A DNA stretch of 63,777 bases, filler included, from Reclinomonas americana ATCC 50394 (GCA_048213135.1; 20 parts of 20 records of this genome joined end to end with filler, not necessarily neighbours in it), one strand, 5' to 3'; shown: positions 20,499-30,013, counted from the whole stretch's first letter. The notes: generated from the sequence alone by a model not told the origin. Program-made: numbers and translations.

Positions 20499-23400
20499 AT
20501 GTCGGTGAGTTGCACTTGCGCTTGCCACTCTCTCTCGCTCTCTCTCCTCACCCACATGCACAGTTCTCTGTGTGCGTGAGTGTTGCGCACGACGCATCGC
20601 TCTTTGTAATCGTCGAAGGCATGTCGTCGACCGCATCCACTCTCGCCGACTTGCTCCGCGAGGCCACTCGCTTGCTGCGCGGGAAGAGCGGCGACGGAGA
20701 GATGGAGATTGTCGGCGTGGAGAAGCCGATGCCGCTGAAGATTGCCAAGGTTGGCGGCCTGGCACTGGAAGACCTGGGCATTGACTCGTCGACGCATCTT
20801 GTGGTGCATGTGATTGGCGGAGAGCGGCTGGCGCAACGCGATCCACGAAGTCTGTCGGTGGTGCGTGTCTCCTCCACGCTTGAAGGAGTCTCCTCTGTGT
20901 CCCTCCCGTACTCATCTCTCTCTCACACACTCCTTTTCTTCATTATGCCACGAAGTTTGTCTATTCTTCTGTATCTCTCTCACACACTCGCTTAAAATCA
21001 CTCTCATTTCCTCTGACTCTTACATACTTGCTCATGCTCTCTCCCTCCCTCTCCTCCCTCCCTCCCTCTCCTCCTTCTCCTCCCTTCCCTCTCCTTCCCC
21101 TCTCCTTCCCCTCTCCTTCCCCTCTCCTTCCCCTCTCTTGCCACTCACTTCCTCATATGTGTGGCAGTTCTCCGTGCGCGTCAGTGCGGCGCATGATTCA
21201 TCTCTGTCGGTGGCGGTGGAAGGCATGTCATCCACGTCCACTCTCGCTGCCTTGCTGGGCGAGGCCACACGCATGCTGCGCGAGAAGAGTGGGGACGCGG
21301 AGATGGAGATTGTCGGGGTGGAGAAGCCGATGGAGTTCGACTTGGAAGATGCGAATGTGGTGATGCTGCGCAGTCTGGGCATCAAATCCAGCACGTCATT
21401 GGTTGTTCGGGTGTCCATGTCGCATGCGGCTTCTGCTGCTGCCGCGGATGCAACAAAAAGGTGATTTTGAGTGCTAAGCATGTGATCCGGATGTGAACTC
21501 GTGCGCTCACACTCGTTCTGGCCATTGTCGTCGCCAGTGTGTCGGCACTGTCAGAACGGTGTGTTGTCGACCATTTTCCACGCTTCCTAATGTCGTTCTG
21601 TCCGACTCATTTGCAACTGTGCGAAGGAGGATTTTCTCGCAGCGCATCGACATGGCGTGGGAGGCCGTCATCGACGCCGTGCGTGTGCGCTGTCGGCACG
21701 TGTTAGCACAGTTTAGTCGCGATCATCCCGATTTTGATGTGCGGGCGTGGACTCCCGATGTGTGGACACCGCCGCTGTGCTTACGTCCGTCGGTGATCAA
21801 GGCATGGTATGATCGTCACGCACCACTCGCCCCTGGTCGCGTCAAGTTGTTTGCACAGCAGCAGCAGCACGTGCTCGACTGGAAGTCTGCGTTCGATGCC
21901 GACCCCGCCACCGATCCCTGTTGTGACGCATTCGACGTGACGGCCTTGGTGTCGATCTTGCTGTTTGGTGGCCTCGTGCTGGATGATGACGGTCGCAAGG
22001 TACTGCTGATCGATGATGTCGATGAGCGCAAGGCGGTTGAGCAGGTGCGTGAGGTGCGCAACGATTTGGCACACGGCTCGTTGGAGTGGACCGCGGCTAG
22101 CGTGCAAGTGAATGTTGGTGATGGCGGTCTGTTTCTGACTCTTGTTGGGCGACTTCGCATTCCTGCTGATACGATGAGCGGCTTTGCAAGTCGAATACGG
22201 GAGGCGCGCCACCTCAACTTCAGCGTCAGTACTTTTGAGGAGCGACTGAATCGGCTTGCTCTGCGTGAGATGGTCTATTATCACGAGGACGAGAGTGTGC
22301 GCAAGGACATGCAGATGTATGTACCACTGCTGTGCTCACGTGAGCGTGACATCTCGTCGCGAGACAAGATGACGGATCTGTTGATGGAGGTGGATGCATT
22401 CCTCTCCGACAGTAATACCACCCAGCGTGTGCTGGTGCTCTTTGGCAACAGTGGTGCCGGCAAGACCACCACCATGTCGGTGTTGGCTGAGCGAGCATGG
22501 CGGCAGTGGCAGACGCGAGAGAGCAGGCGAGTGCCTGTGCGTGTGCCTCTTGGTGCTCTGCGCAATGCCGATGAGCGACTGTTGGAGGAGGCATTGGAGC
22601 GACTGTCGCCCGAGTTGGGATTCAGCGAGTCGGACGTGCGACGGTTGAAGGAGGAGCCGCTGCTGTTGTTGCTTGACGGGTACGACGAGCTGTACCGCGG
22701 TGTGAATCTGTTTGTGAAGAATCAGCTGGACGTATGTCACAATGTGAAGGTGATTATCGCCTGTCGTGGCGATTACGCTCTGACGGCACTGGGTGGCATG
22801 ACACAGTATCGACGGTTCTTTGCACCGGTGGATGCACGAGGACAGTTGTGCATGCAGCAGCTGATGGAGCGATACATTGCGCCGTTTAACAAGGAGCAGA
22901 TTGAGGAGTACTTCGAGAGGCTCGTGCAAGTGGGTGGAGATGACGGTGAGGTGCGATGGTTGACTGCCGCTGAATACATTCGTGCGCTGAAAAGTGTGCA
23001 TGGACTGGATGCACTGGTGTCGAATCCGTTCCTGCTGGTAGTGGTGGGTCATGTGCTGCCGCAATTGGTGGCGAGTGGTGTGCAGCGACCGACTCGGCGT
23101 GATGTGTTTGACCGATTCATTCGACAGTGGATTGAGAGAGAACAAGAGAGGCAGACTCGCCTTGGTGCGGAGCGTGTGCCGAGTGAGGAGACGTGTCTCT
23201 CATTCTGTGAGGGACTGGCACGGTTGATGCATGAGAGGAATGTGGTGCGTGTGTCTGTGATGGAGAGTCGATCAGGAGATGGTGGAGAGGAGGACGATGA
23301 CTTTGGTGGTGCACCGCTCGGTCGTCGACGAGTGGAAGACGGTCCATGGGACAAGTTTCTCGGTCACAAGAATCAGCATGTGCGAGTGTGCTGTCCGATT

Positions 23401-28700: not shown

Positions 28701-30013
28701 GATTTGAGGGATGCGGTGATGCACAGGACGGTGTGGAGGGGGGCGGATTTGCGAGGGGTAAATGTGTGCTTGGCGTATGCAAGGGAGGCGGATTTCCGGG
28801 GGGCGGATGTAACGGATGTGCAGTGGCCAAAGAAACCAACGGTGGGGCACACAGACTGGGTGAGATCTGTCGCTCTCACCACCAACGGTCTGTACGCAAT
28901 CAGCGGCAGTGATGACAGGACTGTGAGAGTGTGGCATGTGGGAAACGGATCGCAGATCGGGCAATTTGATGGACACACAAATGTGGTGATGTCTGTCGCT
29001 GTCGCTCCCCACGGCAAGCGCGTTGTGAGTGGAAGTAGGGATAGGACAGTACGAGTATGGTCTCTGGAGAGTGGACAGGAAGAGCGGCGGCTGGAGGGGC
29101 ACACTCGTGGGATTTCGTCAGTCGCCGTCACTCCCGACAGTCAGTATGTAGTAAGTGGGAGCGATGATGAGACGATTCGTCTGTGGTCGCTGGCCAGTGG
29201 GGAAGAGGTGCGGCGGTTTGAGGGACACCTTGATGGAGTGCACTCTGTTGCTGTCACTCCGGATGGCCAGCACATCGTGAGCGGTGGACGTGACAGAACT
29301 GTGCGCGTGTGGTCACTGGCGAGTGGGGTGGAAGAGCACTGTTTGGTGGGCCACGGTGGCGGTGTCTTTTCCGTGTTGGTCACGCCCGATGGTCAGCACG
29401 TCGTCAGTGGGAGTGAGGATAAATCNNNNNNNNNNNNNNNNNNNNNNNNNNNNNNNNNNNNNNNNNNNNTTAATTAATTAANNNNNNNNNNNNNNNNNNN
29501 NNNNNNNNNNNNNNNNNNNNNNNNNGCGGGAGTGAGGACAGGACGGTACGGGTGTGGTCTGTGGAGAGTGGAGAAGAAGTGCAGCGTTTTGTGGGGCATG
29601 CTGGCGCCATTTGCTGTGTTGCTGTCACGCGTGATGGTCAGCACATTGTAAGCGGAAGCAGTGATGTGACCGTGCGCGTGTGGTCCGTGACGAGTGGTCA
29701 ACAGGTGCGGCGGTTGGAGGGACACACTGGGTGGGTGGAGTCGGTTGCCGTCACCATCGACGACCAATACGTTGTAAGTGGAGGTGCTGACAAGACTGTG
29801 CGAGTGTGGTCGCTGGCGACTGGTGCAGAGGTGCGACGAGGTACAGAGGCTGACTTTGCTGGTACATCTCGCGATGTTGTCACCACACGTGAGCTCACCG
29901 TCCGAGCGTCCGGCACGTCGATTCTCGTGCTGCGAAGGCACCGGCGTGGTGACCTGCTGGAGCAGATCTGTGGATCGTTCTTGCATGATTTCACCCTGGC
30001 ATTGTATGAGTAG
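25792..30013 (+). CDS. NLR-like STAND protein 2 (tandem paralog): ubiquitin-like - Pro-rich linker - HEPN - NACHT - pentapeptide - WD40
   Basis: Same GAGAATGTCG|GTGAG micro-exon (25792-25797), Ubl exon 26101-26378, a PAPAPAPTPPPPP exon, and a long exon from 26579. That exon carries RNDLAH (27012-27029), GNSGAGKTT, LLLLLDGYDE, pentapeptides and WD40 repeats. Stop at 30011-30013. Confidence 0.9.

Follow-up and report, generated by a model that had tools for sequence, protein, structure and literature searches.

Organization of the locus

The analyzed stretch of DNA (the window, 63,777 nt) is a pseudomolecule in which 19 spacers of 100 bases, each composed of 44 Ns, TTAATTAATTAA and another 44 Ns, chain together short contigs of only 1.5-5 kb. 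Two paralogous genes are found on its plus strand, each encoding a helical N-terminal domain, a NACHT NTPase with a helical arm, pentapeptide repeats and WD40 blades, in that order (Table 1). Three spacers interrupt this region, severing an upstream exon and the WD40 array of each gene. Because of these interruptions the adjacency of the genes, the number of repeats and the pairing of heads with tails depend on scaffold order.

TABLE 1. Features of the two genes and of the spacers that interrupt them, with positions counted over the window
Feature	Position	Strand	Remarks
Gene 1, predicted first mini-exon (ATG TCG)	20499..20504	+	followed by GTGAGT donor; sequence reading; joined frame open
Gene 1, predicted exon 2, small beta-rich module a ("Ubl")	20564..20809	+	82 codons; acceptor cag/TTC, donor CAT/GTGATT, phase 0
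Gene 1, predicted exon 3, module b	21168..21460	+	end 21410 (phase 0) or 21460 (phase 2)
Gene 1, main exon	21627..24294	+	start 21627 or 21643; internal ATG 21652; open into spacer
Gene 1, 233-aa orphan N-terminal domain, probably a divergent HEPN	21652..22350	+	core approximately residues 45-195, 21784-22236
Gene 1, RNDLAH (R136...H141), HEPN-type R-x4-H	22057..22074	+	aligns to RN..AH of HEPN_Swt1
Gene 1, NACHT NTPase and helical arm ending in AAANA	22426..23700	+	Walker A GNSGAGKTT 22444-22470; collinear with 14 homologues
Gene 1, pentapeptide repeats	23701..23892	+	Pfam PF00805, E 8.4e-10
Gene 1, WD40 blades 1-3	23893..24294	+	Pfam WD40, 3 stretches; 42-aa units; cut by spacer
Artificial contig spacer	24295-24394		identical copies at 25974-26073 and 29426-29525
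WD40 blades (6 Pfam stretches), C-terminal tail, stop	24395..25304	+	next contig; gene 1 by scaffold order only
Gene 2, predicted first mini-exon (ATG TCG / GTGAGC)	25792..25797	+	sequence reading; joined frame open
Gene 2, module like a and b	25877..25973	+	cut by spacer; 63-69% identity to a/b over 32-33 aa
Gene 2, divergent module c	26101..26378	+	23% identity to module a; end 26352 (phase 0) or 26378 (GTATGT donor, phase 2)
Gene 2, main exon	26579..29425	+	start 26579 or 26595; internal ATG 26604; runs into spacer
Gene 2, RNDLAH	27012..27029	+	sequence reading
WD40 blades, tail, stop	29526..30013	+	next contig; gene 2 by scaffold order only

The main exon of gene 1 covers the N-terminal domain, the NACHT, the helical arm, the pentapeptide repeats and the first WD40 blades; that of gene 2 covers the N-terminal domain, NACHT, arm, pentapeptide repeats and five WD40 stretches. 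Farther upstream, an identical island of 16 bases around the gene 1 mini-exon is common to gene 2 while the rest of the upstream region has diverged. The ATG-TCG/GTGAG mini-exon itself is conserved in both paralogs, modules a and b are 68% identical, and gene 1 exon 3 reads open into the main exon under either splice model. These upstream exons are probably part of the protein. An intron of the same GTGAGT...CAG type was observed in a conserved AdoHcyase gene. This clear intron led us to reject trans-splicing signals in an intronless, trypanosomatid-like genome. The AdoHcyase of the host is the long form, which we take to be of neither the fungal nor the animal type, and it is plausible that the genes belong to an intron-bearing non-animal eukaryote.

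An earlier reading, made from the sequence alone, had labeled the upstream modules as ubiquitin-like (Ubl). This label found no support. None of the four modules matched a ubiquitin-like or any other Pfam family at E ≤ 10, and a PDB profile search gave nothing relevant. An AlphaFold2 model of an upstream module had a pLDDT of 47, with only a beta-beta-alpha start visible, and gave no Foldseek match at E ≤ 0.001.

NACHT, pentapeptide and WD40 regions

The NACHT domain is intact in both copies, as the sequence-only reading had claimed. Pfam NACHT (PF05729) was found with E values of 7e-9 for gene 1 and 3e-9 for gene 2 (bit scores 36.2 and 37.4, cut-off 26.7). The motifs GNSGAGKTT (Walker A of gene 2 at 27396-27422), LLLLLDGYDE, NPFLL and FVHLSLLE are present in both genes, and in the alignment the first two fall on the homologues' G-x-S-G-A-G-K-[ST]-T and D-G-Y-D-E. 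Pentapeptide and WD40 repeats were likewise recovered by Pfam where they had been placed, with scores exceeding the cut-offs and, for WD40, E values of 6e-35 to 1e-66. The WD40 units are near-identical stretches of 42 aa with a few variable positions per unit, and each gene would encode at least 7-9 such highly similar blades. A third related WD40 array, which has no NACHT, lies elsewhere in the window at 42174-43611.

Searches with a 465-aa query region gave 111 homologues at E ≤ 1e-5 with 25-31% identity, mostly from Mortierellaceae and Mycoavidus, with matches spanning up to 100% of the query. An alignment of 16 sequences was collinear from Walker A and B over NPFLL, F-x-H-x-S-L-L-E and AAANA, and on through the pentapeptide repeats into the first WD40. 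The resemblance to a Mortierella-type and endosymbiont family that had been noted earlier is borne out by these homologues, and the arrangement appears as NACHT-PPR-WD40 in PMC11291939. Classification of the two genes as NLR-type STAND genes, on the NACHT-AAANA-pentapeptide-WD40 chassis that expanded in Mortierellomycota and Mycoavidus, is supported by these sequence comparisons. In a midpoint-rooted FastTree phylogeny that kept 98 of 113 sequences, the pair occupied a long branch (1.37) beside three environmental proteins, outside the fungal/Mycoavidus clade.

Divergence of the two copies

Genes 1 and 2 share 83-84% identity in the N-terminal domain and 89% in the NACHT region; dS between the copies is about 0.5 and dN/dS is 0.12-0.20. 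The genes are true paralogs under purifying selection, in agreement with the initial description of two paralogs. With such a dS, two haplotypes of a single locus are ruled out. Divergence is greatest in the WD40 sensor (55% identity, dN 0.32). In the N-terminal domain dN/dS was 0.175 over the full length and 0.08 over residues 84-141, the segment that includes both FDVTAL and RNDLAH and is under the tightest constraint. The earlier reading had made conservation of the arginine and histidine across paralogs a check on its proposal; both residues are indeed present in both copies, but with copies that are 84% identical this carries little weight.

The N-terminal domain

The RNDLAH motif was found in both copies as described before, with FDVTAL 42 residues upstream of it. 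RNDLAH corresponds to the R-x4-6-H motif of HEPN domains, in which the arginine is usually followed by a polar residue (N, D or H). As background for motif frequencies we used 131,094 residues from the 111 NACHT homologues and one WD40 ORF elsewhere in the window. Plain R-x4-H occurred 312 times in this background, which is about 0.55 per 233 aa and makes it uninformative. The form RN..AH occurred 0 times and is rare by chance; a six-frame translation of the window contained it three times, of which two are the focal ones.

The domain behaves as an orphan in database searches. An exhaustive phmmer search of 1.84 billion representatives returned 0 relatives, and none were found by word-index searches, including one with the two-paralog alignment at E ≤ 10. 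Searches against PDB sequences (E ≤ 10), PADLOC and NCBIfam gave 0 matches each. When a profile of the domain was compared with the 111 chassis relatives the best E value was 0.43, and no similar N-terminus was found in any of them. Pfam reported no HEPN family on the full domain, and neither this query nor any of five trimmed fragments matched HEPN_DZIP3 (PF18738) at E ≤ 10. All five fragments, taken from both paralogs, did match HEPN_Swt1, but at a sub-threshold level (E 0.038-0.18, 12.5-14.7 bits against a cut-off of 27.5). The shortest fragment also matched DUF4145 at a sub-threshold E of 0.18. These two were the only families reported on the trimmed fragments out of 24,736 in Pfam, and DUF4145 is listed as a HEPN family in PMC3710099.

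Because PF18738 had no members in the prokaryote genomes searched (0 of 1, then 0 of 401, and 0 of 14 controls), bacterial HEPN_Swt1 domains were used for profile comparison. HEPN_Swt1 occurred at 14 places in 13 of 401 genomes, and the comparison was built on the 12 domains that exceeded the cut-off, with L037 and L038 left out. An HMM of these 12 Swt1-like domains scored the paralogs at 6.4 and 8.2 bits, values that were reached by 2/1000 and 0/1000 shuffles. Alignment to the same domains with hhalign gave a P of 0.011 with a probability of only 3.9%. The Swt1 HMM found nothing once RNDLAH was masked, and all alignment-based HEPN signal is located in one helix of 20 residues. Since the signal is confined to the motif helix, the alignment tests are not independent of the motif that prompted them.

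Protein language-model comparison of the core (residues 45-195) gave as top neighbor a "DZIP3-like HEPN" cluster with a score of 0.90 and 186 of 256 shared features, in which only 34% of the members carry PF18738. This was followed by an unannotated cluster (0.89), a cluster with only 11% DUF4559 (0.89), a PF18738 (38%)/DUF4559 cluster (0.88) and a HEPN_Swt1 cluster (0.85). Eight of the ten best neighbors that bear a family belong to one clan. Whole-domain scores were 0.82 and 0.79, and trimming to the core raised 0.82 to 0.90, although scores of 0.9 are also reached by 4-10 of 100 shuffled proteins and are uncalibrated for protein parts. AlphaFold2 on the single-sequence domain gave a pLDDT of 36, too low to give a fold. 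This model was kept from a fold search because matches at such confidence are meaningless.

We predict that the N-terminal domain is probably a divergent HEPN RNase. The earlier assignment to HEPN is retained as probable: the rare RN..AH motif, the sub-threshold Pfam matches and the language-model neighbors point to it, but no family was significant, PF18738 was silent and the model gave a pLDDT of 36. The domain may be a distant relative of DZIP3/hRUL138-like HEPN domains and we do not file it as a member. The call of the effector is drawn from one motif helix and language-model similarity, for a locus in a fragmented, scaffolded assembly.

It is rather unlikely that the domain is instead a lineage-specific helical effector or adaptor of a non-HEPN type, with RN..AH as a coincidence or a short convergent helix. 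The lack of a family-level match, the loss of similarity when the motif is masked, the low pLDDT and the orphan status would fit such a protein, and many unannotated helical N-termini occur on fungal and bacterial NLRs (PMC9815663). Against it stand the absence of RN..AH from the background residues, the restriction of sub-threshold Pfam families to HEPN in both paralogs, language-model neighbors that are consistently of the HEPN clan and score higher on trimming to the core, and the strong constraint on the motif segment.

Continuity across the spacers

The order of the fragments was considered separately, since heads and WD40 tails could have been mispaired, the upstream exons could form a separate small gene, or the contigs could be non-neighbors. 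The number of spacers, the short contigs, the position of the breaks within near-identical WD40 repeats and the presence of the third WD40 array allow for such an artifact, as does a conserved internal ATG before MAWEAV in both copies. However, the three junctions join WD40 to WD40 on the same strand, upstream module to upstream module, and again WD40 to WD40. Furthermore, a related C-terminal motif closes both tails, both copies keep in-frame splice options, and the dS excludes alleles or a single locus assembled twice. We consider it unlikely that the tandem order or the full architecture is partly an assembly artifact. The tandem arrangement described earlier fits the order at all three junctions, as expected for a real tandem pair, but it depends on scaffold order across the spacers.

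Proposed mechanism and function

On balance we favor, as a fairly probable reading, that the locus encodes two paralogous NLR-type STAND receptors with most likely a divergent HEPN head of the DZIP3/Swt1 group, a NACHT-pentapeptide-WD40 body and a proposed RNase-NLR mechanism. The protein would start with two small beta-rich modules, each encoded by a short exon upstream. The approximately 200-aa helical domain, most likely a very divergent HEPN with an intact RN..AH site, is followed by the NACHT NTPase, whose Walker A and B are intact, then by the helical arm ending in AAANA and the pentapeptide repeats, and last by the highly similar WD40 blades. By analogy with other STAND/NLR proteins, we propose that binding of a ligand to the WD40 propellers would release autoinhibition, after which the NACHT would exchange nucleotide and oligomerize. 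Oligomerization would gather the N-terminal HEPN domains so that pairs of R and H could form a composite metal-independent RNase site, and the resulting RNA cleavage might lead to cell arrest or death. An immune role, RNA cleavage itself and any target, such as the giant viruses suggested earlier, are speculative. The domain occupies the N-terminal position where NLRs carry their effector, and this counts in favor of HEPN because the pairing of HEPN with NACHT is documented (PMC3710099, PMC9646362, PMC8260672).

A HEPN fold that acts as an RNA-binding or oligomerization module without nuclease action, as proposed for some HEPN domains, is improbable here. Inactive HEPN versions, for instance within the Swt1 group, are listed in Table 1 of PMC3710099, where DZIP3-type motifs are described as only "mostly conserved", and the accessible parts of PMC3710099, PMC9646362 and PMC8260672 hold no activity data for eukaryotic HEPN-NACHT proteins. 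Nevertheless, both paralogs retain R, N and H within a segment of very low dN/dS, and the canonical motif form with N after R is tied to active enzymes in PMC9646362.

More improbable still is a function outside immunity, such as one in symbiosis or the cell cycle, in which NACHT-WD40 proteins of this kind would serve signaling or as scaffolds and the N-terminal domain would take part in RNA processing instead of cell death; the genes are duplicated and the WD40 sensor has diverged much more than the NACHT. Moreover, NLR-type conflict systems are typified by highly similar internal repeats and by an effector-NTPase-repeat layout. What speaks for a non-immune role is that PMC11291939 calls the function of the Mortierellomycota and Mycoavidus relatives an open question and suggests host-bacterium interaction.

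Returning to the RNase-NLR reading, corals, anemones and bivalves have HEPN-NACHT proteins by the tens to hundreds, which in PMC3710099, PMC9646362 and PMC8260672 are known from domain surveys only. A simpler example from a microbial eukaryote could make it testable whether NACHT oligomerization switches on a HEPN RNase. Tentatively, and with more doubt than confidence, we suggest that a non-animal eukaryote joined a bacterial or Mortierella-type NACHT-pentapeptide-WD40 chassis to a highly diverged DZIP3/Swt1-type HEPN RNase, placed after duplicated small modules on symmetric exons, to give an RNase NLR outside animals that functions in "abortive infection". In that case HEPN-NLRs would represent a eukaryotic immune design that is ancient or arose by assembly more than once, and the locus would provide a compact, largely intron-free model for studying the HEPN-NACHT mechanism. 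The NACHT-pentapeptide-WD40 chassis would also extend beyond Mortierellomycota and endosymbionts, which bears on its spread by horizontal transfer.

Comparison with known systems

Fungal NACHT-WD40 NLRs of the HET-E/NWD type presumably share with this pair the NACHT and near-identical 42-aa WD40 units, whereas the helical arm and the N-terminal domain would differ and pentapeptide repeats are inserted here. In RNase L and Ire1, which are kinase-extension HEPN nucleases, ligand-induced dimerization or oligomerization switches on the HEPN RNase, and this provides a mechanistic precedent for the proposal. Their sensor and oligomerization modules are different from those of the present pair, and no sequence relation to it was detected.

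The closest relatives of the body are the NACHT-PPR-WD40 receptors of Mortierellomycota and Mycoavidus cysteinexigens (PMC11291939), which are collinear and homologous from the pre-NACHT "YVPLL" linker through the WD40 array, but at the low identity given above. Their N-termini are unlike the one described here, and RN..AH occurs in 0 of the 111 relatives. In the accessible text of a survey of fungal NLR effectors (PMC9815663) the term HEPN occurs 0 times.

The sequence-only reading had known no characterized counterpart of the full architecture. The HEPN-NACHT class has, in fact, been described computationally for cnidarians, bivalves and bacteria. In bacteria, HEPN-STAND and bNACHT proteins (PMC3710099; 10.1101/2022.07.19.500537) have the order of N-terminal HEPN RNase, STAND NTPase and repeats that is proposed here, and the best, sub-threshold Pfam match of our domain is HEPN_Swt1, a family with bacterial members. 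Unlike these, the present genes are eukaryotic with introns, and the Swt1-like similarity is limited to the motif helix. Animal HEPN-NACHT proteins with LRR, TPR or WD40 repeats have been reported as well (PMC3710099 Table 1; PMC9646362; PMC8260672). Among them, the DZIP3/hRUL138-like proteins of cnidarians and bivalves have an N-terminal HEPN-type domain with R-N-x3-H before the NACHT, as proposed for this pair, and likewise C-terminal repeats, which in oyster include TPR or WD40. Their families are language-model neighbors of the core described here, but PF18738 was silent and no sequence homologue was found at any of the thresholds used. They also contain a different NACHT sub-family from the pentapeptide-bearing one of this pair, whose host is apparently non-animal and whose proteins may carry extra upstream modules.

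Organization of the gene pair and its genomic setting

The two neighboring paralogs (gene 1 and gene 2) are genuine NLR-type genes, and their effector is probably a HEPN domain. In both, a domain in the effector slot (hereafter the N-terminal domain, 233 residues) is followed by an NTPase whose Walker A and B motifs are intact, pentapeptide repeats and a diversified WD40 array. All motifs quoted in the sequence-only reading were recovered in both copies, including RNDLAH at exactly the claimed positions (see the table). Pfam detected NACHT at 36.2 and 37.4 bits in the two copies (cut-off 26.7), the pentapeptide repeats at E = 8.4e-10, and WD40 in 3 + 6 stretches in gene 1 and 5 + 2 in gene 2.

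Identity between the copies is 84% in the N-terminal domain, 89% in NACHT and the adjoining helical arm, and 55% in the first WD40 blades. The dN/dS ratio is 0.175 for the whole N-terminal domain, 0.08 for residues 84-141 (FDVTAL to RNDLAH), 0.12 for NACHT and arm and 0.20 for WD40, and both paralogs are constrained. Synonymous divergence of about 0.5 identifies the copies as old paralogs, both retained by selection; alleles or assembly duplicates were rejected on the same value. In the motif-bearing core, paralog dS is 0.28 (10 synonymous differences), below that of the flanks (0.49 and 0.76); gene conversion, RNA-level constraint and small numbers are possible reasons.

The 63,777-base window consists of 20 short contigs of 1.5-5 kb, joined at 19 sites by identical 100-base spacers. 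The 38 runs of 44 N form these spacers as N44 + TTAATTAATTAA + N44, which is a six-frame stop linker for chaining contigs. Because contigs are chained in this way, gene order from one side of a spacer to the other reflects scaffolding, and the adjacency of the two genes, their number of WD40 blades and the tail-to-head pairing come from scaffold order and not from sequence. Four contigs cover the gene pair, and the order at all three internal junctions is what a real tandem pair would give: the first and third lead from WD40 array to WD40 array, on the same strand for the first, and the middle one leads from upstream module to upstream module. The assembly breaks inside the arrays because the 42-residue WD40 units are so alike, with variation concentrated at few positions. 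Beyond WD40, the two genes close with short tails that are related to each other (…GSFL.DF…LYE and a stop codon; tblastn E = 2.7e-4). A third array of the same 42-residue units ends in a C-terminal tail of a different kind, and the part of its contig inside the window lacks a NACHT; this array may represent the 3′ portion of a further family member or a relative with WD40 alone.

The genes are flanked, and their introns filled, by dense microsatellites (CT, GA and CA) and by pyrimidine-rich tracts, which also occupy many intergenic stretches; this composition gives rise to numerous long ORFs on either strand that are spurious. Among the long ORFs scanned outside the gene pair, 36 of 44 lacked a Pfam match at E ≤ 1e-4; pieces with Pfam matches are included in the table.

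Coordinates of features in the window
Feature	Position	Strand	Remark
Contig 1 of gene pair	19565-24294
Contig 2 of gene pair	24395-25973
Contig 3 of gene pair	26074-29425
Contig 4 of gene pair	29526-34699
N-terminal domain, gene 1	21652-22350	+	probable divergent HEPN
Motif-bearing core, gene 1	21904-22074	+
RNDLAH, gene 1	22057-22074	+
RNDLAH, gene 2	27012-27029	+
C-terminal tail, gene 1	25250-25301	+
C-terminal tail, gene 2	29960-30010	+
Third WD40 array	42174-42401, 42544-43611	+	50-67% identical to gene-pair repeats
AdoHcyase gene	2339-4928	+	Pfam AdoHcyase, E 4e-86
EF-hand	11392-12327	+	Pfam, E 1e-6
Ras-family GTPase fragment	16475-17686	-	Pfam, E 1.5e-5
SET domain	33490-34488	-	Pfam, E 1.7e-6
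Contig spacers (three of 19)	1575-1674, 24295-24394, 59667-59766
Microsatellite and pyrimidine-rich tracts (examples)	19565-19870, 20900-21140

The genome is eukaryotic, with ordinary spliceosomal introns. Its splice consensus was supplied by the gene for S-adenosylhomocysteine hydrolase (AdoHcyase), with intron boundaries …PAINV / GTGAGT … CAG /. The AdoHcyase exon matched the long-form PDB enzymes 3ond, 6uk3, 1v8b and 5v96 over its full length (E 1e-71 to 2e-57), and the match to the ~430-residue short forms in the PDB was confined to residues 1-91; the enzyme belongs to the long type and carries the internal insertion. Long forms occur in plants, amoebae and apicomplexans and short forms in animals and trypanosomatids, so that a protist or alga-like host is plausible and an animal host unlikely.

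Relatives of the NACHT-pentapeptide-WD40 chassis

The chassis consists of NACHT, a helical arm with AAANA, pentapeptide repeats and WD40. With the NACHT-arm region as query, 8000 candidates were scored and 111 proteins matched at E ≤ 1e-5, with 25-31% identity, nearly all from Mortierellaceae and Mycoavidus. Aligned with 14 of these relatives, the two window proteins were collinear with them from the YVPLL-type linker preceding NACHT to the first WD40 blade, the landmarks following in order as Walker A, D-G-Y-D-E, the S/A-C-R sensor, A-P-F, N-P-F-L-L, F-x-H-x-S-L-L-E, A-A-A-N-A, the pentapeptide block and the blade itself. Ciach et al. term this architecture ‘NACHT-PPR-WD40’ and infer exchange between Mycoavidus and Mortierellomycota (PMC11291939). 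The resemblance to a family of Mortierella-type fungi and some endosymbiotic bacteria, noted for this chassis in the sequence-only reading, is correct.

A FastTree phylogeny was computed from 98 of 113 sequences, 15 having been dropped because they had no regex-defined Walker A or no 400-residue segment. Under a midpoint root, which is unreliable, the two window sequences share a long branch (1.37) and fall outside the main fungal/Mycoavidus group, with one unnamed protein as sister (support 0.965) and then two more (0.687). None of these three nearest neighbors has a comparable N-terminus.

Assignment of the N-terminal domain

The N-terminal domain is a sequence orphan. No relatives were found in word-index searches, by phmmer among 1.84 billion representatives, or among PDB sequences at E ≤ 10. 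The whole domain matched no Pfam family at E ≤ 10 and nothing in PADLOC or NCBIfam, and it did not resemble the N-terminus of any of the 111 chassis relatives (best E 0.43). A single-sequence AlphaFold2 model reached a pLDDT of 36 and gave no usable fold.

A HEPN effector had been proposed from the R-x4-H signature. Plain R-x4-H is worthless as HEPN evidence because 0.55 occurrences are expected per 233 residues; RN..AH was absent from 131,094 background residues and, when all six frames of the window were translated, turned up only once outside the two gene copies. With Pfam queries shortened to core segments of 151, 91 or 51 residues (five fragments from both paralogs), all five matched HEPN_Swt1, at E = 0.038-0.18 and 12.5-14.7 bits versus a cut-off of 27.5, and with one exception no other of the 24,736 families. 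The exception was DUF4145, matched by the shortest fragment (E 0.18). Anantharaman et al. 2013 count DUF4145 among the HEPN families and note that divergent families of this kind initially came to light through borderline matches (E about 0.05-0.2) that shared the motif (PMC3710099).

A search for HEPN_Swt1 gave matches in 13 of 401 genomes; with two sub-cut-off places dropped, 12 bacterial Swt1-like HEPN domains went into an HMM. This HMM scored 6.4 and 8.2 bits on the two paralogs, values reached by 2 and 0 of 1000 shuffles, respectively; hhalign against Swt1-like HEPN gave P = 0.011, although its probability was just 3.9%. In a greedy alignment FDVTAL falls on the L-D-x-x-A-L-L helix of Swt1-like HEPN, with similar spacing to the motif. 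Masking RNDLAH left no Swt1 HMM signal. The trimmed-fragment and HMM signals rest wholly on the 20-residue motif-bearing helix and are therefore not independent of the motif first noticed.

The top language-model neighbors of the whole domain were a HEPN_DZIP3 cluster (0.82) and a HEPN_Swt1 cluster (0.79). For residues 45-195 a ‘DZIP3-like HEPN’ cluster scored highest (186 of 256 shared features) at 0.90, on a measure that is uncalibrated for protein parts and on which 4-10% of shuffled proteins attain 0.9. Next at 0.89 came a cluster with only 11% DUF4559 and an unannotated cnidarian cluster, then a PF18738 (38%)/DUF4559 (37%) cluster with 0.88 and, at 0.85, one of Swt1-like HEPN; eight of the ten best family-bearing neighbors belong to one common clan. 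PF18738 matched neither the whole domain nor the trimmed fragments. It occurred in 0 of 401 prokaryotic genomes and in 0 of the controls.

The HEPN proposal stands in part: the RNDLAH motif, the sub-threshold HEPN_Swt1 matches and the HEPN neighbors argue for it, whereas the silence of PF18738 and the orphan status of the domain argue against it. We consider a HEPN fold likely, and the prediction of an active RNase evenly balanced.

Upstream modules and gene model

The two copies have in common a 16-base identical island around ATG-TCG/GTGAG, the surrounding upstream DNA having diverged. An intron of just 59 or 79 bases separates the predicted ATG-TCG mini-exon from the next exon, which opens with cag/TTC TC. 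(F-S-V…). Gene 1 carries two such small upstream modules with 68% mutual identity; gene 2 carries one that resembles them and is interrupted by a spacer, plus a second, divergent module (23% identical). The last module joins the main exon in frame under two splice models, both open in both genes: in the first every intron is phase 0, and the second uses a stronger GTATGT/GTGATT donor in phase 2. Translation may instead start at a conserved internal ATG (MAWEAV…). None of the four modules matched a Pfam family at E ≤ 10, and a PDB profile search returned nothing relevant. An AlphaFold2 model of a module (pLDDT 47) contained only a beta-beta-alpha start and gave no Foldseek match at E ≤ 0.001. 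The ‘Ubl’ label given to these modules is a guess.

Proposed mechanism and comparison with known systems

Ligand binding at the WD40 array would cause NACHT to oligomerize, which would bring the N-terminal domains into pairs; the paired R and H residues could then form an RNase site, and RNA cleavage would stop the cell. RNase L and Ire1 are the HEPN RNase precedents behind this proposed activation. We infer the scheme by analogy with established STAND/NLR and HEPN biology, taking HEPN families as in PMC3710099.

As a class, HEPN preceding NACHT is already known. Table 1 of PMC3710099 lists animal fusions of the DZIP3/hRUL138 HEPN with NACHT and other domains, for which Nematostella, oyster and Capsaspora show lineage-specific expansions, as well as CXorf38-type HEPN-NACHT and bacterial HEPN-STAND-TPR proteins. 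Anthozoans have 17-83 HEPN-NACHT proteins per genome (PMC8260672) and the pearl oyster >50, with LRR, TPR or WD40 repeats (PMC9646362); HEPN is also among the effectors of bacterial NACHT proteins (bNACHT preprint, 10.1101/2022.07.19.500537). The HEPN-like domain of the window pair occurs in none of the 111 chassis relatives, and ‘HEPN’ has 0 occurrences in the accessible text of a fungal NLR effector survey (PMC9815663). We found no description of the combined architecture in the literature as available, where supplementary architecture tables could contain a pentapeptide-WD40 variant. Compared with these systems, what is new is the predicted placement of a HEPN-like domain on the NACHT-pentapeptide-WD40 chassis, the apparent non-animal host of a predicted HEPN-NACHT-type gene, the extreme divergence of the putative HEPN domain and, possibly, the upstream modules in front of such a receptor.
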